Source: a virus
Strand: one strand, 5' to 3'
DNA: 55,577 nucleotides
IMG/VR virus record: IMGVR_UViG_3300029681_000005
This document shows positions 12,249 to 55,577 of the stretch, one piece after another. Both the position numbers and the translations under genes were made by a program. Numbering within the stretch: the stretch's first letter is position 1; every line of letters starts with the position of its first letter. The notes beneath the pieces are model-generated. The model did no database searches. It saw only the letters and a program-made list of their open reading frames with translations, and was not told where the DNA came from.

Positions 12249-13112
12249 ATGAAAAAGGTAGCAACTATTATTTCTTCTGTGGTAGCAGCATTTTTTGTTG
12301 CAGTGGTTCTTTTGCTGTGTTTGGAGAGAGTGCCTGTTGGTTATGTTGGAGTTGTTTATTCGGCACGGGGCGTTGAGCAGAACACCTTGTCACAGGGCTG
12401 GCATTTTCTTTCTCCTATGAAGCACGTTAGCAAGTTCCCTATTAGCCAGCAGCAACTTATTTTTTCGGATGACCCGGCAGATTATAACGCAAAAGAACAC
12501 GCAGATTGGCATATTGATGCTCCTGCAAGCGGTGGAATGGTTGGAGTAAATCTTACTGTAAATTATAACTTCATTCCAGACCGTGTTGTTGAACTCTACA
12601 GCCGTTTTAACGGAATGGATGGTGAAACGCTTGTGGAAAGCCGCATCCAAAACAGCATTATCGCCTACGTCAAGGAAGTAACGCCCCAGTTTTCTGTAAT
12701 GGATATTTATTCTGAAAAGAAAACGGAAGTAAACAACGCAATCACAAATTATTTGAACGAAAAGCTTACCAATGAATACGGAATCAACGTTTCAAGTGCC
12801 CTCGTGATTGATGTAGAGCTGGATGACACTTTGACCGAAAAGATTAGAGCAAAAGAACAAGCAAAGCAGGATGCTGAAATCGCTGAGCTGAACAAGCAGA
12901 CTGCTCTTGCACAGGCTGAGACGGACAAGGTGAAGGCTCAGACGGAAGCCGATGTGAAAGTGATCGAAGCACAGGCAGAAGCAGAATCCAATCGTATCGT
13001 GTCGGAATCCATCACTCCCGAACTGATTCAGATGAAAGAAGCTGAAGCCAGACTGAAGCATGGATGGGTTACTGTCAATGGCGCAGATACAGTCGTAACA
13101 AAAGCTGATTGA
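12249..13112 (+). CDS. SPFH/Band-7 (prohibitin/HflC-like) membrane-anchored protein
   Basis: N-terminal TM helix, then VPVGYVGVVYS...GWHFLSPMKHVSKFPISQQ. C-terminal A/E/Q-rich coiled coil. Confidence 0.7.
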   Translation: MKKVATIISSVVAAFFVAVVLLLCLERVPVGYVGVVYSARGVEQNTLSQGWHFLSPMKHVSKFPISQQQLIFSDDPADYNAKEHADWHIDAPASGGMVGVNLTVNYNFIPDRVVELYSRFNGMDGETLVESRIQNSIIAYVKEVTPQFSVMDIYSEKKTEVNNAITNYLNEKLTNEYGINVSSALVIDVELDDTLTEKIRAKEQAKQDAEIAELNKQTALAQAETDKVKAQTEADVKVIEAQAEAESNRIVSESITPELIQMKEAEARLKHGWVTVNGADTVVTKAD

Positions 13113-46101: not shown

Positions 46102-46245
46102 ATGGTTTTGTTCTATGTGACCCAAATCAAACTGCACCGCTTTGACGGCGCTTTTACCATCGACAACGTTCCTGACCGGTACAAGGATGCCGTGATGAAA
46201 AAGCTGACGGAGGAGGGATTTTATGAGGTGGAAAGTGATGCTTGA
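46102..46245 (+). CDS. XkdX-like small protein (47 aa)
   Basis: AAGGAGG upstream; MVLFYVTQIKLHRFDGAFTIDNVPDRYKDAV. Confidence 0.45.
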   Translation: MVLFYVTQIKLHRFDGAFTIDNVPDRYKDAVMKKLTEEGFYEVESDA

Positions 46246-47008
46246 CTTCCTGCGGGATATCTTTTCTGCCCTCTCCCACGCTGCCGGTGACAGCGCCGAC
46301 AAGGAAGAGCCTTCTCCTGCACCGGACGTGCCCACTGTGGACACCGTGAACGGGTGGGCAGGTGAGCCTCCTTACCGGTACATTGACGTGAGCCGGTGGC
46401 AGGGCACAATCGACTGGGAGAAAGTCAAGTCTACGGAGTACAGGGGCGTAATGCTGCGTGCACTGGGCAACAAGGGCGGCAATCCTTATTTTGACCCCTG
46501 CTTTGAGGAGAACTACGCCGGTGCAAAGGCCGCAGGGCTTGACGTTGGCGTATACTGGTACAGCGCAGCCACCACACAGGCTGGTCTGGATGCAGAGCTG
46601 TCCATGCTGAAAGAGGCTGTCCGTGGGAAAGAGCTGACCCTTCCGGTCGCTATGGACGTAGAAGATTCTCGTCTTGCGGTGCTGAATGCGCAAGATCTGA
46701 CCGACCACGTGGCAACAGCCCTGCACGAAGTGGAGCAGATGGGCTTTTATGCCCAGCTTTACACCTACACCAGCTTTGCAAAGGCACATCTCTTTGTGGG
46801 CGGTGCGGCTCTGCACCCTTATGACGTATGGCTTGCTGACTACACTGGCAAGACCCCGAAGGTGGACTTTAAGTACAATGCCCACCAGCACACCAGCAAG
46901 GGCAGCATGCCGGGCATTTCCGGCAACGTTGATCTCAATGTGACCGAAATCAACTACCCGAAAATCATCCGCAAGAAGGGCCTGACCCGTCTCCGGGAGG
47001 ACAAATGA
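46238..47008 (+). CDS. Endolysin, GH25 muramidase
   Basis: YIDVSRWQGTIDWEKV, GLDVGVYWYS, DVWLADY and HQHTSKGSMPGISGNVDLN. Confidence 0.8.
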   Translation: MLDFLRDIFSALSHAAGDSADKEEPSPAPDVPTVDTVNGWAGEPPYRYIDVSRWQGTIDWEKVKSTEYRGVMLRALGNKGGNPYFDPCFEENYAGAKAAGLDVGVYWYSAATTQAGLDAELSMLKEAVRGKELTLPVAMDVEDSRLAVLNAQDLTDHVATALHEVEQMGFYAQLYTYTSFAKAHLFVGGAALHPYDVWLADYTGKTPKVDFKYNAHQHTSKGSMPGISGNVDLNVTEINYPKIIRKKGLTRLREDK

Positions 47009-47877: not shown

Positions 47878-48111
47878 GTGCTGCCTGTGGCGGCGGCTCG
47901 TGTAGTCTTTCCGCCAGCGTTGCAAGGGCTTAATGCAGAACAGATAAAAGCTGTGATAAAACGTTCGCCGCTTGGGAGGTATGACCGGAAAATCGCCCGG
48001 TTGCGGTACGTTGACCAGCTATGTCAAGTTGATATTGCAGCGCGTGTGCCGTATTGTCGGACATCAATCGGCAATAGGCTGAAAATTATTGATAAAATGC
48101 TGGATGTGTGA
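47878..48111 (+). CDS. Sigma-70 region-4-like HTH ORF (77 aa), no clear RBS
   Basis: DRKIARLRYVDQLCQVDIAARVPYCRTSIGNRLKIIDKML. Confidence 0.4.
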   Translation: MLPVAAARVVFPPALQGLNAEQIKAVIKRSPLGRYDRKIARLRYVDQLCQVDIAARVPYCRTSIGNRLKIIDKMLDV

Positions 48112-48156
48112 TACTATACTTTTAATTGGGTGCGTTTTCTTGTGAAGCGCGTTGAA

Positions 48157-48192
48157 GCGGCAGGCTTTCGGGTCTGCCGCTTTTCTTTTTTT
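48157..48192 (+). terminator. Rho-independent terminator
   Basis: GCGGCAGGC-tttcg-GGTCTGCCGC followed by TTTTCTTTTTTT. Confidence 0.75.
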
Positions 48193-48357
48193 ACGATTTG
48201 CTGGTGGATTTTGTTTTATTCGCACTAGTTTTGTCGAAAGCATTGCCATATATTGGATGATGTGATATCTTAGCATTGCACTCCAATGTGTGTGCCCTTA
48301 ACAGTTAAGCGCTCATGCGGATTTTTCCGTGTGGGCGCTTTTCTTTTTTGCTCATAG

Positions 48358-48399
48358 TAATCAAGCTCTAATCAAGCTTTAAGCAAGGTTTAAGCAAGA
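48358..48399. repeat. Four tandem 11-bp units (TAATCAAGCTC, TAATCAAGCTT, TAAGCAAGGTT, TAAGCAAGATT)
   Basis: Read directly. Followed by duplicated TTCGTTGT / TGTCCTTC motifs to 48433. Confidence 0.8.
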
Positions 48400-48479
48400 T
48401 TTTTTGTCCTTCGTTGTGCGTTCGTTGTCCTTCACTTTTTTCTGATGCGGTACACTGAGAGCACAAGGAGGGATGTTTT

Positions 48480-48998
48480 ATGAGCTATTATCCGACACCC
48501 GGAACGCCTTACGTTCCGCAGCAGCCTGTCAATCCTTACGGTGGCATGGGAACGGTAGGCCTTGCCACTCCCCTGCCCAACACGCAGATGCAGCAGGCAC
48601 AGCCGCAGCGTCCGCAGCCGATGAATGGGCAGCAGCCTGTTCAGCAGTCGGCACAAGATGGCGGTTGGTTGCTTGGCAGACCTGTTTCCAGCAGAGAAGA
48701 GTTTTTGGCGATACCGTCTGACCTGTACGGAAGATGGACGTATTGCCCGGATTTGCGTAGTGGGGTCATCTACTGCAAACGTCTGAACCCAAACACTTGT
48801 GAATCTGACGTGTTAGAGTTTTACAGCCCGGAAGCATGGCGGCAAATGCAAGCGCAACAGGCACAGCAGACCGCTGCACCAACACAGCAGTATGTGCCTG
48901 TTGAGCAATACAATGCCCTCGTCCACCGTTTGGATGAGTTGGAAAAGTGGCAGAAGAGCTTTTCTAAGCCCACTGCCACCGCAAAGAAAGGAGAATAA
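48480..48998 (+). CDS. Unknown: Q/P-rich disordered N-terminus, small Cys-containing domain, coiled coil
   Basis: AAGGAGGG RBS; MSYYPTPGTPYVPQQPVNPYGG... Confidence 0.65.
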   Translation: MSYYPTPGTPYVPQQPVNPYGGMGTVGLATPLPNTQMQQAQPQRPQPMNGQQPVQQSAQDGGWLLGRPVSSREEFLAIPSDLYGRWTYCPDLRSGVIYCKRLNPNTCESDVLEFYSPEAWRQMQAQQAQQTAAPTQQYVPVEQYNALVHRLDELEKWQKSFSKPTATAKKGE

Positions 48999-49001
48999 GC
49001 A

Positions 49002-49253
49002 ATGTCCTCTCCGTTTGATATGATTACTCACAGCCCTATCATGCAGCTTGCAAATCTGGCTCGCGCCGGGCAAAACCCGATGGGGCTTATCCAGCAGCTG
49101 GGTGGGCAGAGCGCACCCATCATGCAGGGGCTGAACCTGATTCAGGGCAAAAACGAAGCGCAACTCAGGACGATGGCGCAGAACCTCGCCAAAGAGCGTG
49201 GCATCGACCTGAACCAACTGGCAAGCGCCCTAAATTTGACGCTTCCGAAGTGA
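49002..49253 (+). CDS. Unknown small Q/M/G-rich protein (83 aa)
   Basis: ORF track; tightly spaced after 48998. Confidence 0.6.
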   Translation: MSSPFDMITHSPIMQLANLARAGQNPMGLIQQLGGQSAPIMQGLNLIQGKNEAQLRTMAQNLAKERGIDLNQLASALNLTLPK

Positions 49254-49265
49254 GGAGGCTTTACA

Positions 49266-49427
49266 ATGGATGATTTTGAAAACAACCATTCCGAAAAAGA
49301 TTTTGACATCAACAATCTGTGTGGCAATGACAAAATATGGGTTCCTTTAATGCTTGGCTTGATTTTCGGTGCTGCCAGCAAAAATTGGGTTGACCAAAAA
49401 GACAAAAAAGACAACCCTCCAAGTTGA
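49266..49427 (+). CDS. Micro membrane protein (53 aa), N-terminal paralogue of the 49568 protein
   Basis: AGGAGG RBS; MDDFENN...IWVPLMLGLIFGAA; translated by hand. Confidence 0.55.
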   Translation: MDDFENNHSEKDFDINNLCGNDKIWVPLMLGLIFGAASKNWVDQKDKKDNPPS

Positions 49428-49567
49428 CTTAACAATCCTAAAATAAGCATCCTTCTAAGCGAAACGCTTCTCAGTTTTGCGGACTTGACAAAAACCGCGT
49501 TTGTTTGGCTTCGCCCATCGCATACGGCGGTGGGATAGCATAACGCAAAACTGAAAGGAGTTTTGTT

Positions 49568-50440
49568 ATGGACGATTTTGCAACTGGCTATCTGGCTGGG
49601 CAGGACGGCGGCAACAACAACGGCGGATTCTTCGGCAACGAAGGCCTGTGGGCTGTTATTATCCTTGCCATCATCTTCGGCTGGGGTACAAACGGCTATG
49701 GCCGGAACGGCGGTGACAACGGCATGAACGCTTACATCCCCTATCTGGTCGGCACAGGCGCAACCGGGCAGGGCGGTAACGACACCCGCGCGGCTTTGTC
49801 TGAGGGCTTCTACCAGCAGGATACCTCCCGTTCTCTGGCGGGCATCCAGAGCGGTATCTGCTCTCTGGGCTATGACCAGCTGGCACAGATGAACGGCGTC
49901 AACACCAACATCGCAAACGGCTTTGCAGGCGTGAACAGCGCCATCTGTCAGCTTGGCTACCAAAACGCACAGCTCGTGAACGGTCTGGAACGCAGTGTGT
50001 CCAACGGAGACAACGCTATCAGCCTTGCCATCATGCAGGAGGGCAACGCACGGCAGGCAGGTCAGACCGCTCTTGCCACGCAGCTTGCATCTTGCTGCTG
50101 CGAGAACAAGCAGCTGATCGGCGACCTGAAGTACACCATCGCAACGGAAGATTGTGCTACCCGTCAGGCTATCGCAGACAACGCCCGCGCCATTGTGGAC
50201 AACTGCAACGCCAACTTCCGCAGCATGATGGACTACTTCACGCAGGACAAGATTGCCACTCTGACCGCTGAGAACCAGAACCTCAAGTTCGCGGCTTCTC
50301 AGGATCGTCAGAATGCGCTTCTGACCACCGTGATGTCCCAGCAGACTGATACCATCCTGAACCGGGTCAATCCTCGTCCGATTCCCGCTTATCAGGTGGC
50401 AAACCCCAACTTGGGCGTGAACTGCTGCGGCTGCTGCTAA
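49568..50440 (+). CDS. Unknown membrane-anchored protein: G/N-rich N-terminus, one TM helix, helical Q/N/A-rich body, Cys clusters (SCCCE, C-terminal NCCGCC)
   Basis: AAAGGAG RBS; MDDFATGYLAGQDGGNNNGGFFGNEGLWAVIILAIIFGWG. Confidence 0.65.
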   Translation: MDDFATGYLAGQDGGNNNGGFFGNEGLWAVIILAIIFGWGTNGYGRNGGDNGMNAYIPYLVGTGATGQGGNDTRAALSEGFYQQDTSRSLAGIQSGICSLGYDQLAQMNGVNTNIANGFAGVNSAICQLGYQNAQLVNGLERSVSNGDNAISLAIMQEGNARQAGQTALATQLASCCCENKQLIGDLKYTIATEDCATRQAIADNARAIVDNCNANFRSMMDYFTQDKIATLTAENQNLKFAASQDRQNALLTTVMSQQTDTILNRVNPRPIPAYQVANPNLGVNCCGCC

Positions 50441-50525
50441 CCAACACACTCCCCGATAACACCGGGTGAACCATCGGGGCAGGGGTAAGACACCTCTGCC
50501 CCTGATTTTTTAGGAGGAAAACATT

Positions 50526-50897
50526 ATGGCTTGCAAAACAAGCTGCCGTCTGTGCCCGCACCTCGTCATCTCGAATGCGGTGACGTTCGCCAATGACACG
50601 CTGACCATCAACATTCCTGCTGGCTCTTACCAGAACGGAGAGAAGTATTGTCTGGTCATTGCTCAGGCTTTGCCGGACACGACCACCATCAACGCCCCTG
50701 TGGTCATTACCATTGGAGCAGGTACGACCGCATACCCTCTGACCGACTGCAACTGCGCTCAGGCGACCGCCGAGAGCATCCACACCCGCACCCGTTACGC
50801 TACCTGCGTTGCAACGTCTGCGACCGGCACAGGCACGTTCAAATATCTTGGCTGCTTCTGCCGTTCCCACGCCGGAGCGCCCGCGTCTATTTCTTGA
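50526..50897 (+). CDS. Unknown beta-rich protein (123 aa) with N- and C-terminal Cys clusters
   Basis: AGGAGGAAAA RBS; MACKTSCRLCPH...YLGCFCRSH. Confidence 0.65.
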   Translation: MACKTSCRLCPHLVISNAVTFANDTLTINIPAGSYQNGEKYCLVIAQALPDTTTINAPVVITIGAGTTAYPLTDCNCAQATAESIHTRTRYATCVATSATGTGTFKYLGCFCRSHAGAPASIS

Positions 50898-50910
50898 GGA
50901 GGTGTAGATT

Positions 50911-51549
50911 ATGGGCAAGAACAATTTTCGCCGCATGATGATGCTCCGTGACCACGACAAAAACCGTGAGCCGGAACGTGACCGTCTTGAGGAAGAGCGT
51001 GACCGCAGGGAGCGTGAAATGGAACGTCGTCTGCGTAAGCTGGAAGGTGGCAACGACCGCTATCCCTACTATCTGCAGGAGGAAAACCGCTACATCGACC
51101 CCTACCCTATCCCTCGCTACCCTGACGTAGAGTATGAGCGCAAGATGCCGCAGATTGGCTTCTCGCAGAGCGGAGACTGGGACAAGCGGTCTAAGCAGTA
51201 TGAGCATGGCGGTGCGGACAGCCGCTCGATCAAGATGCCACGCAAGCACCTCACCCACGATGAAGCGGAGGAATGGTGCGACAGCATGGTGAACGCTGAC
51301 GGCACAAAGGGCTGTCACTGGACGCTGGAACAGACACAGGACGTTGCCAAACAGCGCAGCATCGCCTGTGACCCGAACGATTTCTGGGCTGTCATGAACA
51401 TGATGTACTCCGATTATTGCCAGGTTGCAAAGCGTCAGTCCGTTGACACTCCGGGCTTCTATGCTGACATGGCAAAGGCGTTCCTTGAGGACGTAGATGC
51501 CGCAGATGGTAAGGCGTATCTCTACTGGGATTGCATTGCTGAAAAGTAA
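50911..51549 (+). CDS. Unknown protein: R/E/D-rich and P/Y-rich N-terminus plus conserved-looking C-terminal domain (…FWAVMNMMYSDYCQVAK…)
   Basis: GAGGAGG RBS; ORF track. Confidence 0.65.
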   Translation: MGKNNFRRMMMLRDHDKNREPERDRLEEERDRREREMERRLRKLEGGNDRYPYYLQEENRYIDPYPIPRYPDVEYERKMPQIGFSQSGDWDKRSKQYEHGGADSRSIKMPRKHLTHDEAEEWCDSMVNADGTKGCHWTLEQTQDVAKQRSIACDPNDFWAVMNMMYSDYCQVAKRQSVDTPGFYADMAKAFLEDVDAADGKAYLYWDCIAEK

Positions 51550-51555
51550 AACAAA

Positions 51556-51594
51556 CCCCTGTGCAACCAATCGAGGTTACACAGGGGTGTTTTG
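51556..51594. terminator. Bidirectional terminator between convergent blocks
   Basis: CCCCTGTG ... CACAGGGG followed by TGTTTTG. Confidence 0.7.
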
Positions 51595-51597
51595 CGC

Positions 51598-52086
51598 TTA
51601 TCGGATTGTCACTATTCCTCTATCTTTCATATACTCGATAAAATCTTCTGCTGGCATTCTCTCTGAAAGTTCTTTCATTGTGTATTGGCGTTTTTCCTCA
51701 ACCCAATGCTTCTTTTCTTCGATACCAGACAAATCGTGGACTGTATACCATTGTGTTTTTGGGCTATCAAGTCCATTTGAAAGGAATTGGACCTTAAACC
51801 AATCTGGACGTTTTCTTCGTTCAAACCAATTCAATTCTGAAAATTTTATCCATGCAATGTTTTTATAATTTCCTTCCTTTTGCCCTTTGCTCTTAAAATT
51901 ATTTCTTATTTTCTTTAAGCTAAAATAGTTGTTTTCAACGCATTGGTTTTCCATATATCTTATGCGCCAATCTTTGTCTCGAAAGACCATCTTACCTTCG
52001 TATATGTCACCGCCTGTCCCATTGAGATACCAATGCGATTCGTAGTGGCCTAACACTTTTTGTCCCATGTGTTTCCTTTCTCCCAT
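51598..52086 (-). CDS. Unknown Trp/Lys-rich protein (162 aa; alternative start at 52068), AT-rich gene
   Basis: ORF track; last gene of the minus-strand operon; composition differs from neighbours. Confidence 0.6.
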   Translation of the reverse strand: MGERKHMGQKVLGHYESHWYLNGTGGDIYEGKMVFRDKDWRIRYMENQCVENNYFSLKKIRNNFKSKGQKEGNYKNIAWIKFSELNWFERRKRPDWFKVQFLSNGLDSPKTQWYTVHDLSGIEEKKHWVEEKRQYTMKELSERMPAEDFIEYMKDRGIVTIR

Positions 52087-52147
52087 GTGCGGTCGTTGCG
52101 GCTACACAGGGGCCATTTTATTTGGTATAGTACAATTTCATCATACG

Positions 52148-53029
52148 TCAATCCTCCAAGAAATCTTCTTGATTCATAACTTGATTTACAATTCGTTCTG
52201 TGCATTCTTTGATAACCGTAGACGCGGGGACATTATCTTCATAAGCTATGTTTTCATATTGTGCTCTTGCATATTCAAAGAACCTTTTAGAAAGTATGTC
52301 TGCATCCGCACGGCACAACGGCTTTAGTTCGTATTGCAACGGAAATCTTCTTGTAAGTGCAGGGTCAAGCCTATCAAATCGATTTGTCGTTCCAATAATA
52401 ATGACATTGTTCGGCAATCTATCCATTTCTTGCATAATCGCAATAACCACACGGTTCATTTCCCCAACGTCATCTTTTTGCCCACGAGCCATTCCGACCG
52501 CATCTATTTCATCAAAACAAAGAACGCAAGGAACGGTTCTCACATAATCAAAAATTCTTGCAAGGTTAGATTGTGTTTGCCCTAAGTGCGAATCAACTAG
52601 ATTTGAAAATTGAATCCTCAAAAACGGAAGTTTTGCTTTATGTGCGATATACCTAGCCAGCATGGTTTTTCCGCATCCGCTTTGCCCATAAAGCATCAAT
52701 GCTGGCAAATAAGGAATGCCAATTTCGTTCAATTTTTCAGATGCTCGATAAATAGCAACGATTTTCTGCGTTATACTTTTTTCTTCGTTCCTGAGAAGGA
52801 ATCTTGCTTCTGGAAATTCTTCTGTATCCTCTGCGATCAAAAGATGCTGCAAGTTATATGGCAATTCAATAAATTCTCTTTTGCTTTCCAACTTACGAAA
52901 CATATTTTCTTTGAACTGCTCATCTTTTTTGGATGATATAGAATTCAAAATGATTTTAACAGCTTTTTGTGCGTTTCGCATATCGCCATCGCAAACAAAT
53001 CGAATAAGGTGTCGTTCACTATCATTCAT
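52148..53029 (-). CDS. Classical-clade AAA+ ATPase (293 aa) with an unknown N-terminal domain of about 110 aa
   Basis: Walker A GQSGCGKT, Walker B VLCFDEID, second region of homology TTNRFDRLDPALTRRF. Confidence 0.8.
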   Translation of the reverse strand: MNDSERHLIRFVCDGDMRNAQKAVKIILNSISSKKDEQFKENMFRKLESKREFIELPYNLQHLLIAEDTEEFPEARFLLRNEEKSITQKIVAIYRASEKLNEIGIPYLPALMLYGQSGCGKTMLARYIAHKAKLPFLRIQFSNLVDSHLGQTQSNLARIFDYVRTVPCVLCFDEIDAVGMARGQKDDVGEMNRVVIAIMQEMDRLPNNVIIIGTTNRFDRLDPALTRRFPLQYELKPLCRADADILSKRFFEYARAQYENIAYEDNVPASTVIKECTERIVNQVMNQEDFLED

Positions 53030-53594
53030 CTAGTAAATCCTCCAACTCAATCTTCCCATCTGCCGCAGCAGCAGCCAGAGCGTATACGAACTGCCCGATG
53101 GTCATTCCGTGCCGTCTGGCTTCACGGTTGATGTACTTGCGTTCTTCCTCGCTCATAAGGATGGTAATGCGCTTAGAACGCTTGCCATCACCGCTTGCAA
53201 CGCCCTGATGCGATTCCGGAATCGGGATTTTTTTCTTTGTCAACCCAGCTTCGGTTAATGCGCCAGAAACATCGCCTTGTTCGATAAGGCGTTGAACTTC
53301 TTTCGCTTGTTTCAGTTTCTTTGGCTTACTTTCGCCTAACACGGCATCACTTGGCTGTCTTTTGCTGTCTTTGGCTTGCTTCGGCTTAATGCTGCTTAAT
53401 TCCGCTTCACTTGGCTGTGCATGGCTGTCTGTGGCATCACTTGGCTTAATTTGCTCCTGTTCGGCATTATTCGGCTTTGTTTGGCTTACTTCTTCTTCCT
53501 TTGGCTCACTTCGGCTTAATGTCTGTTCCGAAAAAACAGGCTGGAAGTCAAACCCGCCAAGCAGACCCGTTGATTTTTTACTGGTTGACTTCAT
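53022..53594 (-). CDS. Ribbon-helix-helix DNA-binding protein (190 aa) with a repetitive disordered N-terminus: candidate centromere-binding or regulator protein
   Basis: Start moved to MKSTSKK (GGAGG 9 nt upstream). C-terminus RITILMSEEERKYINREARRHGMTIGQFVYALA. 8-nt overlap with the AAA+ start. Confidence 0.6.
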   Translation of the reverse strand: MKSTSKKSTGLLGGFDFQPVFSEQTLSRSEPKEEEVSQTKPNNAEQEQIKPSDATDSHAQPSEAELSSIKPKQAKDSKRQPSDAVLGESKPKKLKQAKEVQRLIEQGDVSGALTEAGLTKKKIPIPESHQGVASGDGKRSKRITILMSEEERKYINREARRHGMTIGQFVYALAAAAADGKIELEDLLDE

Positions 53595-53595
53595 T

Positions 53596-53844
53596 TTACA
53601 TTTCCTCCACTTTCTTCGGAAGCTCACGAATTGGCATCCAGTATTCAATTTCTCCCGGCTTAAACTGTTTTACGATTCCTCGATTGTTCCACCATAACCA
53701 TTTCCAATAATAGCCAATATAAATGTTCCCGTCTTTGTCAGCCAACAAAACTTCTTTCTTCTCTTTTGGTAAATCCCATTCATAGTTTGTTGGTGCCCAT
53801 TTTTGAAACTTTGTTGTGTCCATAACTGCCACAAGAACGTCCAT
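53596..53844 (-). CDS. DUF551-like protein (82 aa)
   Basis: W-rich; ...EIEYWMPIRELP; weak RBS. Confidence 0.45.
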   Translation of the reverse strand: MDVLVAVMDTTKFQKWAPTNYEWDLPKEKKEVLLADKDGNIYIGYYWKWLWWNNRGIVKQFKPGEIEYWMPIRELPKKVEEM

Positions 53845-53921
53845 ATATGCGTCTTTTTCTTCCTTGCTTTTAGCTCCAGCCTAATAGCAAGAAATTTCGC
53901 TCTGAACGATTTCACCGTCAA

Positions 53922-54194
53922 TCAGTCGCATTTTGTGTCCTCCTCATTATATATTAAATCGTAAAATCCTCCATCCTCTCCAATATAAAAAGAGCCATCT
54001 TCCCAATATGCTCCACATTGGTTGGCGCAGGCTGCGGTCATTGGGTCTCCGCCACCAGCTCCTTTTGTTGTCGTGTATCGTTTTGACAACTTTCCGCTTT
54101 TGGTCACTTTATATTCACGAGATATTTGTATGAATTCAGAAACGACAATCTCTCCGCCGCACAATGGGCAGCAAGTACGAAGCTTCCCTTTCAT
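53922..54194 (-). CDS. Zinc-ribbon protein (90 aa)
   Basis: CCPLCGG ... CANQCG; ATGA overlap with the parA stop. Confidence 0.55.
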   Translation of the reverse strand: MKGKLRTCCPLCGGEIVVSEFIQISREYKVTKSGKLSKRYTTTKGAGGGDPMTAACANQCGAYWEDGSFYIGEDGGFYDLIYNEEDTKCD

Positions 54195-54961
54195 TTTGCA
54201 TCCCCCTCCGCAATCATCTTTGCCAAAGCCTTGAAATCCTCTGCGCTGGTACTCTTTGCTGTGTCACCGCTAAACAGGCTGTGACGCTCTGCCTGTGCCT
54301 TACGAACGCCCATAGACGGTCTAATCTTCACGTCAAGCAGCTTTGTTCCCATGCTTTGTGCAATCACAGGGAGCTGTTCCACAACCTCTTTGGACAGGTT
54401 CTCACGGCTCTTGTACTGGTTCAGAAGCAGACCCTCAATCTTCAAGGTCGGGTTGAAGTATCTGCGAACGTCACCGATGGTCTGTGAAAGTTGGCTCAAT
54501 CCGGCAAGCGCATATCGGTCTGCTGTAATAGGCACGATGATGCTGTTGGCGGCGATCAGAGCGTTTACAAGTGCAAGGCCGAGCTGCGGGGGAGTGTCCA
54601 AAACAATGTAATCGTACCGTTCAGACACGGATTCCAGCGCTTCACGCAGCCGAAAGTTCTTACCAATGTCCCGGACAAGCTGCTCGTCAATGTCTTTCAA
54701 TGCGTTGTCTGACGGCAGAATGTCACCGGCTTCGCAGTGCTGGATTCCTTCTTCTACCGTTCCCTGCCGGGTCATTACATCGAACAGGGTACAAACATCC
54801 TCTGTCTGCGCGCCGTAGGTGTCCGTTGCGTTGCACTGGGCATCGCAATCCACCAGCAACACCTTCTTGCCAAGCAGCTGCAACGCGCCAGCCAGACAGG
54901 TGCTTGTGGTGGTCTTTCCTGTGCCGCCCTTCTGGTTGGCGACAGCTATAATTTTTGCCAT
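54191..54961 (-). CDS. parA: ParA/Soj-type partition ATPase
   Basis: Deviant Walker A NQKGGTGKTT; LLVDCDAQ; IVLDTPP. Confidence 0.85.
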   Translation of the reverse strand: MAKIIAVANQKGGTGKTTTSTCLAGALQLLGKKVLLVDCDAQCNATDTYGAQTEDVCTLFDVMTRQGTVEEGIQHCEAGDILPSDNALKDIDEQLVRDIGKNFRLREALESVSERYDYIVLDTPPQLGLALVNALIAANSIIVPITADRYALAGLSQLSQTIGDVRRYFNPTLKIEGLLLNQYKSRENLSKEVVEQLPVIAQSMGTKLLDVKIRPSMGVRKAQAERHSLFSGDTAKSTSAEDFKALAKMIAEGDAK

Positions 54962-54976
54962 TTTATCACTCTTTCT

Positions 54977-55577
54977 TTACTCAATATAATCAAATCCGAA
55001 TGTCGCAAACTTACTTAACTGCGAATCCTTGATAACTGTCCGAAGATACGCTTCCGGCACTTCAACATCTAGCTTGCCTTTCACAGCCATCTCGTATGCG
55101 TTCTGCACAATATTTATAACGGCAGCTTTCTTCTTTTCTTTACGAATATTCGGATATTCAGACTTCAACCGCCTTGCCACAGACCTTGCTATACTTGCAC
55201 ACTGTTTTTCATCAACGCCAGGAATCAGGCTTTCCCAGTCAATATCTTCGTATGCGCCATTTCTAGGGCTTTTGACTGGTTTTTCGCTTTCGGAAGCATC
55301 TCTTAAAGGCGTTGTCTCAATCTCGCTAGATTCGGCATCTATGATGGGCTCAGAGCGCTTCATCTTTACGTCAAAAATAATTGATACCGTCTTATGCCCA
55401 ACCATCCGCTTTTTGTACGACACTGAAATATCAGAGATGTCATTAATTTCAGCAACGGCAACGTCCAAGACCTTTACTCTGAAGAACTTAAACTGGTCGT
55501 AGCTATTTGCTGTTGCGCCAAGCTGTTCTTTTAGCTTCTTGACGCTGATTTCATGTCCCTTTGACCCCATGTTCATC
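54977..55577 (-). CDS. rep: Rep_3-like initiator, C-terminal part (joins 1..560 across the junction; 55479-55577 duplicates 1-99)
   Basis: Tracked ORF ...YDQFKFFRVKVLDVAVAEINDISDISVSYKKRMVGHKTVSIIFDV; stop at 54977. Confidence 0.8.
   Translation of the reverse strand, partial: MNMGSKGHEISVKKLKEQLGATANSYDQFKFFRVKVLDVAVAEINDISDISVSYKKRMVGHKTVSIIFDVKMKRSEPIIDAESSEIETTPLRDASESEKPVKSPRNGAYEDIDWESLIPGVDEKQCASIARSVARRLKSEYPNIRKEKKKAAVINIVQNAYEMAVKGKLDVEVPEAYLRTVIKDSQLSKFATFGFDYIE
55479..55577. repeat. Right copy of the 99-bp terminal overlap
   Basis: Identical to 1-99. Confidence 0.9.

Follow-up and report, generated by a model that had tools for sequence, protein, structure and literature searches.

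The genes at positions 48480 to 51549 of the window (the whole 55,577-nucleotide stretch of viral DNA analysed here) belong to a genuine operon that carries its own regulation and encodes cysteine-rich, low-complexity and coiled-coil proteins. This operon shows the behaviour of a moron, a movable accessory cargo that temperate phages and phage-plasmids infecting gut Bacillota carry outside their virion and lysis machinery. Gene content, synteny, the swapping of genes within a slot, mobility, regulatory signals and the architecture of the core protein are all directly observed. As to what the operon makes, our preferred reading, held tentatively (a probability of about 0.35), is a stalk-and-cap layer of cross-linkable proteins attached to the cytoplasmic membrane. 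An earlier sequence-only reading had described six co-oriented genes with strong ribosome-binding sites between dedicated terminators, and had taken them for a self-assembling extracellular or spore-surface structure. Its observations hold in most particulars: all six open reading frames (p1 to p6) were recovered, an AGGAGG-type ribosome-binding site lies 6-9 nt 5' of every one, two hairpins stand upstream and a bidirectional one downstream, and the residue compositions are as described, with 11 cysteines in p4, including SCCCE and a terminal CCGCC, and nine in p5, including C3, C7 and C10. The unit itself must be redrawn, however: it begins 5' of p1, at a small helix-turn-helix (HTH) regulator gene that travels with the cassette, it contains a conserved terminator in the p4-p5 gap (50476-50502) that had been missed, and p3 falls outside it. 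The interpretation survives insofar as the set is accessory, co-inherited and structural-looking; the proposed spore-appendage role finds no support in the tests made. The features are as follows.

47878..48111, plus strand: reg, 77-aa sigma-70-region-4/LuxR-type HTH protein (PHROG 36 'transcriptional regulator', E=8e-4)
48154..48193, plus strand: terminator-like hairpin (48154-48183) and T-tract after reg
48307..48350, plus strand: second terminator-like hairpin (48307-48340; 15 pairs, 8 of them G-C) and T-tract
48358..48401, plus strand: four tandem 11-nt units, TAATCAAGCTC, TAATCAAGCTT, TAAGCAAGGTT and TAAGCAAGATT, a putative reg operator
48480..48998, plus strand: p1, 172 aa (PHROG 21718): disordered P/Q/Y-rich head, conserved ~55-aa domain, C-terminal helix
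49002..49253, plus strand: p2, 83 aa, Q/M/N/L-rich and helical, with relatives in PHROG 22984
49247..49442, plus strand: 196-bp strain-variable insertion carrying p3, without counterpart in the related locus L001
49266..49427, plus strand: p3, 53-aa single-helix peptide with its own ribosome-binding site
49568..50440, plus strand: p4, 290 aa, core protein (PHROG 16490), present in all 82 loci compared
50452..50512, plus strand: conserved intergenic RNA/terminator element, with a small hairpin (50452-50466) and a strong G+C hairpin (50476-50502) followed by a T-tract
50526..50897, plus strand: p5, 123 aa, beta-rich, with conserved C3, C7, C10 (CX3CX2C), C42 and C77
50911..51549, plus strand: p6, 212 aa, with an R/E/D/Y/P-rich head and a C-terminal DUF7841 (PF25223, E=1.2e-25)
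51555..51588, both strands: bidirectional terminator-like hairpin closing the cassette and the convergent minus-strand genes

The comparison set comprised 82 or more related loci, and 175 GTDB species carry the module. Strict synteny is kept across 82 loci at 20-50% identity, in the order reg, an optional papain-like protein (pept), p1, p2, p4, either p5 or a BclA_C-like protein, and either p6 or an alternative, p6alt. The order p1-p2-p4-p5-p6 returns in diverged loci, and the set is co-inherited; because that order is kept and database relatives are many (more than 7,290 for p4, 638 for p5 and 222 for p6), the genes are far from chance open reading frames. Profile searches place p1 in 75 of the 82 loci, each time immediately 5' of p2 or p4, and p2 lies between p1 and p4 in at least 54. 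The exception is p3, whose insertion is absent from the closest relative, L001 (90% identical on either flank), and from all 81 other loci, and is present in a few near-identical relatives (MT836731 and seven IMG/VR contigs); judged by this distribution, p3 is not a conserved member of the module. That no protein could be assigned to a known family was nearly right, since p6 is a DUF7841 protein and p1 and p4 fall only in PHROGs of unknown function. The make-up of p1 to p6, with a coiled-coil rod, cysteine clusters, low complexity and no signal peptide in any module member, suggests a structural rather than an enzymatic role.

Homologues of reg match the Pfam families Sigma70_r4 and GerE, and the reg family stands 5' of p1 or pept in 33-43 of the 82 loci, mostly 40-150 nt away and wherever the module sits, which makes reg the putative dedicated regulator of the module, though no ribosome-binding site for it is recognisable in the window. 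Most related loci share the layout of reg stop codon, hairpin and T-tract. The second hairpin is terminator-like and would insulate the cassette against transcription from upstream; against Rfam it gives just a weak, sub-threshold match to ctRNA_pGA1. Beyond the four 11-nt units, a further repeat, TTGTCCTTC, occurs in two copies within 48404-48433. Phased direct repeats, mostly with 11-bp spacing, are found in 21 of 37 reg-to-cassette intergenic regions (mean of shuffles 7.7, maximum 15). SigmaA-type -10 hexamers are enriched 5' of the cassette, occurring in 26 of 37 loci where 10.9 would be expected, whereas the search for sporulation-type promoters (sigmaE/K/G/F) gave no enrichment of -10 elements (2 of 37 against 2.9 expected).

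The element between p4 and p5 stands directly 5' of the p5 ribosome-binding site (z = -3.3). It is kept in nearly all loci, whether p5 or the BclA_C-like gene comes next, its hairpin shows compensatory changes in 8 of 9 pairs across 18 loci, and it matches no Rfam family. As p5 lies downstream of this terminator, it is likely to be a minor component, not a major fibre subunit like Ena.

The core protein, p4, begins with an acidic G/N-rich tail, one hydrophobic helix (approximately residues 26-38; mean Kyte-Doolittle 2.4) and a G-rich linker, continues as a helical rod of ~170-185 residues (~26 nm) with an invariant CCC (C176-178), and ends with a P-x-P-A-Y-x-V-P-N-P motif and a Cys/Gly tail. 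The rod is amphipathic with a periodicity of 3.6-3.64, indels within the family come in multiples of 11, and a low-confidence AF2 model (pLDDT 48) has helices at 84-145 and 151-267. The N-terminal flank of the hydrophobic helix is acidic (mean D+E 3.0 against K+R 0.5) and K/R lie past it, although the positive-inside signal is weak, amounting to about one K/R. These charges favour a topology in which p4 would be a membrane-anchored helical rod on the cytoplasmic side, with just ~25 residues outside the cell. An extracellular structure is doubtful, because no module member has a signal peptide and the charges of p4 favour a cytoplasmic rod. Variation in the C-terminal tail does not track which kind of partner fills the p5 slot, and contact between tail and cap therefore gains no support. 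The proposed likeness to YjcZ-type sporulation proteins is compositional: in both, a short and very hydrophobic helix comes after a G-rich stretch, but p4 has 290 residues and a long rod, and does not match the NCBIfam YjcZ family (TIGR01732) at E<=1.

The most conserved module protein is p5 (median pairwise identity 53%), for which 8 strands and 1 helix are predicted at low confidence (pLDDT 56). It occupies its slot in 37 loci and the BclA_C-like protein does so in 39 of the 82, never both, and the two are not homologous. The BclA_C domain, Pfam PF18573, is known to form trimeric knobs; the slot protein matches it at E=4.4e-7 and 30.3 bits, under the gathering score of 38 bits, and its cysteines are conserved only in part. 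Cysteine content is 6.1% in p5, 4.4% in p4 and 3.1% in the BclA_C-like proteins. That an unrelated protein can fill the slot argues for a shared role that is structural and not catalytic. The strong conservation of p5, its CX3CX2C motif and its two further conserved cysteines suit a protein that binds a cofactor or host target no less well than they suit a structural cap. In the next slot, p6 is elsewhere replaced by p6alt, an unrelated helical R/D/S/Y/G-rich protein (PHROG 28802). The papain-like Cys-His-Asp protein pept is a frequent addition that the window lacks.

Could the module serve the spore surface? Expressed in the mother cell, it would give the lysogen's spores an additional layer resembling a coat, exosporium or appendage, with p4 as stalk and p5 or the BclA_C-like protein as a cysteine-cross-linked nap of knobs. 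The BclA_C-like protein in the p5 slot fits the exosporium idea, the proteins are cysteine-rich without signal peptides, the Y/P/Q- and R/D/S/Y/G-rich members recall the composition of coat proteins, reg is small and GerE/sigma-r4-like, the papain-like protein could by analogy cross-link as Tgl does, and all carriers are Bacillota (Clostridia and Bacilli). The BclA nap of the Bacillus cereus group likewise combines stalk and knob without signal peptides, and is anchored on a cysteine-rich ExsY/CotY basal layer; about half of the modules encode a single-domain protein resembling its TNF/C1q-like knob. However, phage fibres too commonly bear knobs of the BclA_C type, the p5 of the window has no BclA_C similarity, the module's BclA_C match is sub-threshold, no Pfam collagen match is found among the six cassette proteins, the stalk would be an alpha-helical protein of its own with a membrane anchor, and the module is carried by phages and occurs in a reportedly non-spore-forming genus as well. 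The Ena subunits (DUF3992), to which p5 had been compared, are similarly beta-rich and small (~120 aa for p5), with an N-terminal cysteine cluster and more cysteines near the C-terminus, but Ena1A/B are major polymerising subunits whereas p5 is probably minor. Neither p5 alone nor 27 members of its family gave any Ena/DUF3992, CotZ/ExsY or BclA_C signal, sequence and profile searches of the PDB found nothing for p5, and Foldseek returned no match with the weak p5 model. No window protein carries an Ena/DUF3992, CotZ/ExsY, GerQ or YjcZ signal. To this and the promoter counts is added the intact module that a cultured strain, Vescimonas fastidiosa MM35, carries in a prophage; its genus is reported to be non-spore-forming by phenotype and genome prediction (PMC11334427). 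Modules also occur in metagenome-assembled genomes labelled Christensenellaceae, Mollicutes and 'Onthoplasma', although phage contigs are not reliably binned. We therefore regard a spore-surface role as unlikely.

The position of the module varies between genomes, and its behaviour is for this reason that of a moron. In the window and others it follows the lysis genes at the prophage/attP end, elsewhere it adjoins the integrase, and in two phage lineages it lies inside the head gene cluster, between a Mu-F-like protein and the scaffold and major capsid genes in Dulem virus 35 and directly 3' of the major capsid gene in L084. All carriers examined are temperate, encoding an integrase or ParA/Rep; the window encodes ParA and a Rep_3 initiator, which supports its description as a phage-plasmid. 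The claim that the cassette is cargo outside the virion and lysis modules likewise agrees with its own signals and variable position. Known morons and lysogenic-conversion cassettes (the lysin-attP cargo of streptococcal and staphylococcal prophages, and those of HK97 and lambda) are also autonomous promoter-gene-terminator units of temperate elements, found at the lysis-attP junction, beside the integrase or elsewhere. The typical moron is a single toxin or exclusion gene, however, whereas this module has five to seven conserved genes, a regulator that belongs to it and an attenuating terminator between its genes.

Placement inside the head gene cluster raises the prospect of a virion accessory, in which p4 would be a fibritin- or head-fibre-like coiled-coil fibre on capsid or neck, capped by p5 or the BclA_C-like knob, with the remaining proteins as assembly chaperones. 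Viral fibres classically combine a coiled-coil shaft with a TNF-like knob, and in singleton proteins the C-terminal half of p4 follows a tail-fibre-like N-terminus that contains collagen sequence. Yet these fusions are one-off, with junctions at Q/A-rich microhomologies, and may be deletions or assembly chimeras. We find a virion role improbable, given that the module brings a regulator and promoter-like signals with it and is bounded by terminators on both sides, that its other positions are typical of cargo, and that the N-terminal helix of p4 is strongly hydrophobic and membrane-type.

Defence cargo accumulates at prophage ends, where the module lies, and both in the window and in the related locus L093 the cassette is back-to-back with an IetA-like AAA ATPase (PADLOC E=8.6e-55 in the window). 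A complex on the inner membrane face might thus block superinfecting phage, or act as an abortive-infection or lysis-control device; the membrane anchor and separate regulation suit expression in the lysogen, and holin and endolysin genes often adjoin the module. Such protection is nonetheless a slim prospect: the six window proteins give no PADLOC match, effector domains (nuclease, NTPase, protease or any other) are absent bar the optional papain-like protein, the composition appears structural, and little of p4 would be exposed outside the cell. Spanins of the Rz type (i-spanin) resemble p4 in their N-terminal membrane helix, long coiled coil and conserved cysteines, and p4 often lies just 3' of endolysin and holin genes. 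In contrast to spanins, the module is separated from the lysis genes by terminators and moves independently of them, its hosts are monoderm, p4 has no lipoprotein partner and is about twice the size of Rz, and its rod is predicted to be cytoplasmic.

Finally, p5 and p4 might bind Fe-S clusters or metals in a redox, metal-handling or sensing role, for which the conserved cysteines of p5, the invariant CCC of p4 and the strictly anaerobic hosts, whose cytoplasmic cysteine clusters usually bind cofactors, can be cited, but this is very unlikely, as no Fe-S or metal-binding family was found for either protein, a protein with only partly conserved cysteines can replace p5, and structural proteins that become cross-linked typically have (Cys-Gly)n tails.

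The preferred reading, a membrane-bound stalk-and-cap layer, goes beyond the observations in membrane topology, stoichiometry, cross-linking, binding partners and biological benefit, which we infer. Membrane proteins that are anchored at the N-terminus and extend a long helical domain into the cytoplasm are known in EzrA and in p16.7 of phage phi29, one of them phage-encoded; both differ from p4 in lacking sequence similarity, cysteine clusters and a beta-rich partner gene, and their functions (division control and the organisation of replication) are only conceivable analogies. In the layer that we propose, reg would bind the 11-bp phased repeats and govern the sigmaA-type promoter, which the terminators would shield from late read-through. 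The proteins p1, p2 and p4 would be produced in quantity, and the conserved terminator 3' of p4 would let only some transcripts reach p5 and p6. With its one N-terminal helix as anchor in the cytoplasmic membrane, p4 would point its ~26-nm rod, with its 11-residue repeat, into the cytoplasm, and its invariant CCC and Cys/Gly tail could cross-link by forming disulfides when oxidised or by way of metal ions. Either p5 or, elsewhere, the trimeric BclA_C/TNF-like knob would be a sub-stoichiometric cap or partner, p1, p2 and p6 may be low-complexity adaptors or scaffolds, and in some versions pept might process or cross-link components. Formed during lysogeny or in the last stage of infection, the product would be a cross-linkable layer lining the host membrane on its inner side, and may alter the envelope or persistence properties of the host.

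The six plus-strand open reading frames (p1 to p6) listed by the sequence-only reading are present in the window at exactly the coordinates it gave, and each of the six is preceded by an AGGAGG-type ribosome-binding site.

Features of the cassette and of the region upstream of it
46223-47008, GH25 endolysin gene, upstream of the cassette
Upstream of the cassette, two holin-like genes
47878-48111, small helix-turn-helix regulator gene (reg), upstream of p1
48154 and 48307, terminator-like hairpins between the lysis genes/reg and p1
48358-48401, four tandem 11-nt units, TAA[T/G]CAAG..T., in the leader of p1
48480-48998, plus strand, p1, 172 aa
49002-49253, plus strand, p2, 83 aa
49266-49427, plus strand, p3, 53 aa
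49568-50440, plus strand, p4, 290 aa
50476-50502, strong hairpin with T-tract between p4 and p5
50526-50897, plus strand, p5, 123 aa
50911-51549, plus strand, p6, 212 aa
51555-51588, bidirectional hairpin closing the cassette

The remainder of the window carries a structural module of siphovirus type, with genes for terminase, portal, major head protein, tail fibre proteins and a tape measure of 1317 aa, and metagenomic phage contigs from human faeces match the region at about 90% identity. As the window encodes both ParA and a Rep_3 initiator, the earlier label of phage-plasmid is reasonable, and the presence of the same ParA-Rep3 block beside the cassette in three sister contigs (L090-L092) points to a family of such elements. 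The plasmid-type maintenance block spans 53022-55576 on the minus strand, comprising a 208-aa RHH/MobA/NikA-like protein with a repetitive K/P/S/E-rich N-terminal half (53022-53648), ParA (54191-54961) and the Rep_3 initiator (54977-55576), which is truncated by the end of the window. The early/replication half includes an unusual cargo for a phage, a gene for an SPFH/Band-7 (stomatin/prohibitin-like) membrane protein (12249-13112; Pfam E=1.3e-21).

Profile-iterated searches across 82 related loci gave both the gene order and the family counts. The order is invariant: reg - [pept] - p1 - p2 - p4 - (p5 or a BclA_C-like protein) - (p6 or p6alt) - [pept], where pept is a protein whose invariant Cys, His and Asp follow one another as in a papain-like triad; it is absent from the window and has no Pfam or PDB match.

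Occurrence of each family among the 82 loci
p4, 82/82
p1, 75/82
p2, at least 54/82
BclA_C-like protein, 39/82
pept, 39/82
p5, 37/82
reg, 33-43/82
p6alt, 28/82
p6 (DUF7841), 27/82

The proposal that all six genes form one co-inherited set holds for p1-p2-p4-p5-p6, whose order is conserved across loci, but the limits of the set differ and p3 falls outside it. The p3 frame lies within a 196-bp insertion (49247-49442) that is missing from the closest relative and from all other loci among the 82 compared, being restricted to near-identical relatives. It has a good ribosome-binding site and may be a real small gene, but is not a member of the module; a test with the p4 profile led us to reject the idea that it derives from the p4 N-terminus as a degenerate copy.

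Two positions in the module behave as slots. No locus (0/82) encodes both p5 and the BclA_C-like protein, and profile-profile comparison detects no homology between the alternatives at either position (hhalign gives a probability of 0.8% for the p5 and BclA_C-like families). The alternatives at the two slots recombine freely, and sister phage-plasmids that share the Rep3/ParA backbone of the window have the other variant at the p5 slot.

The module is widespread. Relatives of p4 number more than 7,290 among 90%-identity clusters, none of them named, and occur in at least 175 GTDB species in a scan of one genome per species; p5 has 638 relatives and p6 has 222. The best 80 loci come almost entirely from gut Clostridia and Bacilli (Lachnospiraceae, Oscillospiraceae, Acutalibacteraceae, Blautia, Lachnospira and Acutalibacter), together with a few phage-sized contigs binned outside these groups. 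The sole species name attached to one DUF7841 relative (P0326) is 'Segatella hominis' (Bacteroidota). The contigs encoding this protein (L090-L093) carry genes for an SPP1-type holin and a GH25 endolysin and are phage-plasmids of the Rep3/ParA kind, and the label is probably due to contamination or mis-binning.

The reg proteins (66-97 aa) have a helix-turn-helix of the sigma-70-region-4/LuxR type, and the gene usually lies 40-150 nt upstream of the first cassette gene, whatever the insertion site. The intergenic region follows a recurring plan, in which the reg stop codon is succeeded by direct repeats, two to four in number, then by a terminator hairpin and T-tract, and last by a -10-like element. 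Of 37 loci, 21 have phased repeats (shuffles: mean 7.7, maximum 15), spaced at 11 bp in 17 of the 21 cases. The p1 leader of the window (48358-48433) also has TTGTCCTTC twice, 21 nt apart, 3' of the 11-nt units, while after the reg stop codon locus L065 has three copies of CGTATAAAAAT and locus L007 three copies of ATCATGATAAA. Such repeats are analogous between loci but different in sequence, which suggests that these putative operators co-vary with the regulator. SigmaA-type -10 hexamers are enriched upstream of the cassette (26/37 loci against 10.9 expected, maximum 18). Promoters of the sporulation type, which the sequence-only reading had put forward as a check, show no such enrichment, sigmaE/K- and sigmaF/G-type -10 elements being at background (2/37 loci against 2.9 expected).

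A second conserved signal lies between p4 and the next gene. In almost every locus, with either slot type, a small hairpin is followed by a strong G+C hairpin and T-tract abutting the next ribosome-binding site. Across 18 loci, 8 of the 9 pairs of the p4-p5 terminator hairpin show compensatory changes, and the window copy folds better than all shuffles (z = -3.3); Rfam holds no family for the intergenic elements. The two-hairpin RNA element occupies 50452-50512 in the window and recurs at the equivalent place in some 60 related loci. In many loci the bases that open the terminator stem, (A/T)TCGGGG, complement the small hairpin's 5' arm, CCCCGA(A/T), and a conserved TGA follows the small hairpin. 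The element could be an attenuator with alternative pairings as opposed to a plain terminator, and the simplest reading of the arrangement is graded expression, with much p1-p2-p4 and less p5-p6.

The position of the module varies between genomes. It follows the lysis genes in the window, as it does in bajarodcaudo virus 5, several human-gut prophages and a prophage of Vescimonas fastidiosa; those prophages carry it as their final block, ahead of attP, the integrase or host genes. It comes after the integrase in Dulem virus 39 and between a Mu-F-like head protein gene and the scaffold/capsid genes in Dulem virus 35, and in locus L084 it is directly 3' of the major capsid gene, beside a DGR reverse transcriptase. 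In this lineage (L084, 12643-16434) a DGR-like pair, a 663-aa protein with a weak DUF6273 match and an RVT_1 reverse transcriptase, comes right after the module, and module and pair together form an insertion that separates the major capsid gene from the head-completion genes. Every carrier examined is temperate or plasmid-like, encoding an integrase or ParA/Rep. The variable position, together with the module's own regulator, promoter-like signals and terminators (48154, 48307 and 51555 in the window), indicates that it behaves as a moron, an autonomous unit of phage accessory cargo, and not as a fixed virion or lysis component. Accessory operons of this genetic kind are already known; the content and organisation of this one are without a described counterpart. 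A search of the accessible literature found no description of the module and no mention of its unnamed families.

Annotation of the proteins themselves yields little. Pfam, PHROGs, NCBIfam and PADLOC scans of the six proteins and flanking genes matched the cassette only to DUF7841 and to PHROGs of 'unknown function'. The sequence-only reading, which could assign none of the six to a known family, needs one correction: most families are indeed unnamed, but p6 contains Pfam DUF7841 (PF25223; residues 109-202, E=1.2e-25, 90.4 bits against a cut-off of 25.2) behind a charged Y/P-rich head. The domain is also precomputed in p6 relatives, for which a homologue search returned only the name 'DUF7841 family protein' and no informative domain fusions. 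All components of the module and its variants other than DUF7841, the generic helix-turn-helix and the BclA_C-like variant are unnamed families; the PHROGs concerned (21718, 22984, 16490, 20016, 28802 and 3754) are all of 'unknown function'. The p6 alternative, p6alt, is helical with a centre rich in R/D/S/Y/G; p1 consists of a head rich in P/Q/Y/N, a domain of some 55 residues and a helix at its end, and p2 is a small helical protein rich in Q/M/N. PDB sequence and profile searches gave nothing significant for p4, p5, p6 or the p1 and pept families.

The universal component, p4, begins with an acidic G/N-rich tail and one very hydrophobic helix of 13-15 residues, the flanking charges of which modestly favour an N-out, C-in topology. 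The likeness of this head to YjcZ (TIGR01732) found no backing in an NCBIfam scan at E<=1, which returned no family. After a G-rich linker comes a helix of about 170-185 residues; the AlphaFold2 model (23 homologues) puts helices at 84-145 and 151-267 with the low confidence that a monomer would be expected to give. The hydrophobic periodicity is 3.6-3.64 and indels within the family come in multiples of 11, indicating a hendecad-type rod of about 26 nm. Invariant or near-invariant features are CCC (176-178), C98, C196, ENQxLKxAASQ, PxPAYxVPNP and a (Cys/Gly)-rich tail, which shows no detected co-variation with the type of partner in the p5 slot. Four singletons (P0067, P0054, P0073 and P0071) join the C-terminal half of p4 in frame to p1 or to a collagen-containing, tail-fibre-like N-terminus. 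Their junctions always fall at Q/A-rich stretches (..AQQAQQTA.. / ..RQAGQTA..), and we rejected the collagen fusions as evidence because they are singletons joined at such microhomologies; they are microhomology deletion variants or assembly chimeras.

The architecture of p4 fits the membrane-anchored coiled-coil part of a spanin, but the differences are several. No signal peptide or lipobox was seen in the module proteins when the sequences were read by eye, whereas a spanin pair includes an outer-membrane lipoprotein; the lysis genes and the cassette have two terminators between them, the module also lies far from lysis genes in some genomes, and its hosts are Clostridia and Bacilli, as opposed to the diderm hosts of spanins. 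Our best estimate, at a probability of roughly 0.35, is a moron whose products would assemble in the cytoplasm into a cross-linkable stalk-and-cap structure anchored in the membrane. In this model reg would act on the operon via the 11-bp repeats, and how much p5 is made relative to p4 would depend on the internal terminator. Gene content, synteny, mobility and the signals are established here; membrane topology, stoichiometry, the contacts between components, their cross-linking and any benefit to the carrier are proposed tentatively.

The alternative favoured by the sequence-only reading, a spore-surface layer of exosporium- or appendage-like type, appears unlikely. One finding fits it: the slot protein of relatives resembles BclA_C (PF18573, E=4.4e-7, 30.3 bits, below the cut-off of 38; PHROG 20016). 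Neither p5 of the window nor its family members match BclA_C, none of the six proteins has the Pfam Collagen match expected of a BclA GXX stalk, and the only collagen-bearing relative of p4 is the singleton fusion P0067. The claimed resemblance of p5 to Ena subunits fared no better, there being no DUF3992 match (Pfam; p5 at E<=1, 27 family members at E<=10). Compared with the Ena jellyroll, the p5 model (27 homologues) has eight strands and one helix and the N-terminal cysteine cluster is present, but pLDDT is 56, and Foldseek of this weak model against PDB found no match at E<1. No bridge from p5 to a known family emerged when 1.84 billion representatives were exhaustively profile-searched; only one compact family, 363 clusters of like size, was recovered. 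Nor did Pfam support a likeness to coat proteins (CotZ/ExsY/CotY, GerQ) in p1-p6, and these models did not match the p1-like proteins of L017 and L081 either. The hosts also speak against a spore layer: an intact module resides in a prophage of the cultured V. fastidiosa MM35, whose genus is reported to be non-spore-forming (PMC11334427). This copy is complete (reg-pept-p1-p2'-p4-BclA_C-like-p6alt) and follows the prophage holin and amidase genes. Lachnospira, another isolate host of the module, is also described as non-sporulating.

A fibre or decoration of the virion is similarly improbable. Knobs of the TNF/C1q type, the one hint of an exosporium here, commonly form the tips of viral fibres as well; the moron behaviour of the module speaks against a fixed virion component. 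We regard membrane-associated exclusion or defence as quite unlikely, although p4 has a hydrophobic helix: PADLOC matched neither p1-p6 nor reg, its only hit being the neighbouring minus-strand IetA-like gene. That gene encodes an AAA ATPase (52148-53029; PADLOC E=8.6e-55, NCBIfam IteA E=6e-52). After it, in place of the subtilisin-like IetS partner, comes a 162-aa protein without family match (51598-52086, minus strand), and the two (51598-53029), back-to-back with the cassette, may be a variant defence pair; a similar AAA gene adjoins the cassette in L093. A metal or Fe-S role for the cysteine clusters is very improbable, though C3, C7, C10 (CX3CX2C), C42 and C77 are conserved in p5, the most conserved member of the module (its median pairwise identity is 53%, while p4 reaches 41% and the other members 21-36%).

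The stalk-and-cap assembly can be extended, as a long shot, to a portable, self-regulated kit that would build a Cys-cross-linkable stalk-and-knob coat on the inner face of the host membrane. Such a layer would be a counterpart of exosporium- or occlusion-body-type layers, hardening with oxygen and protecting the lysogen, spores or enclosed progeny between hosts; its carriers would be temperate phages whose hosts, gut Firmicutes, are strict anaerobes and in part non-sporulating. If true, this would be a new kind of phage-borne protective coat.

Few uncharacterised gene sets in this sector of the gut virome are as common as the module, with 4,044 member sequences in a single 90%-identity cluster of p4 and 7,778 in one of p6. 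A conserved unit with slot swapping, its own regulator and an internal attenuator bears the usual marks of a functional machine. The cultured carrier V. fastidiosa MM35 makes the question open to experiment. If dominant gut Clostridia had their envelope, persistence or spores altered by the module, this would amount to widespread lysogenic conversion in commensals.
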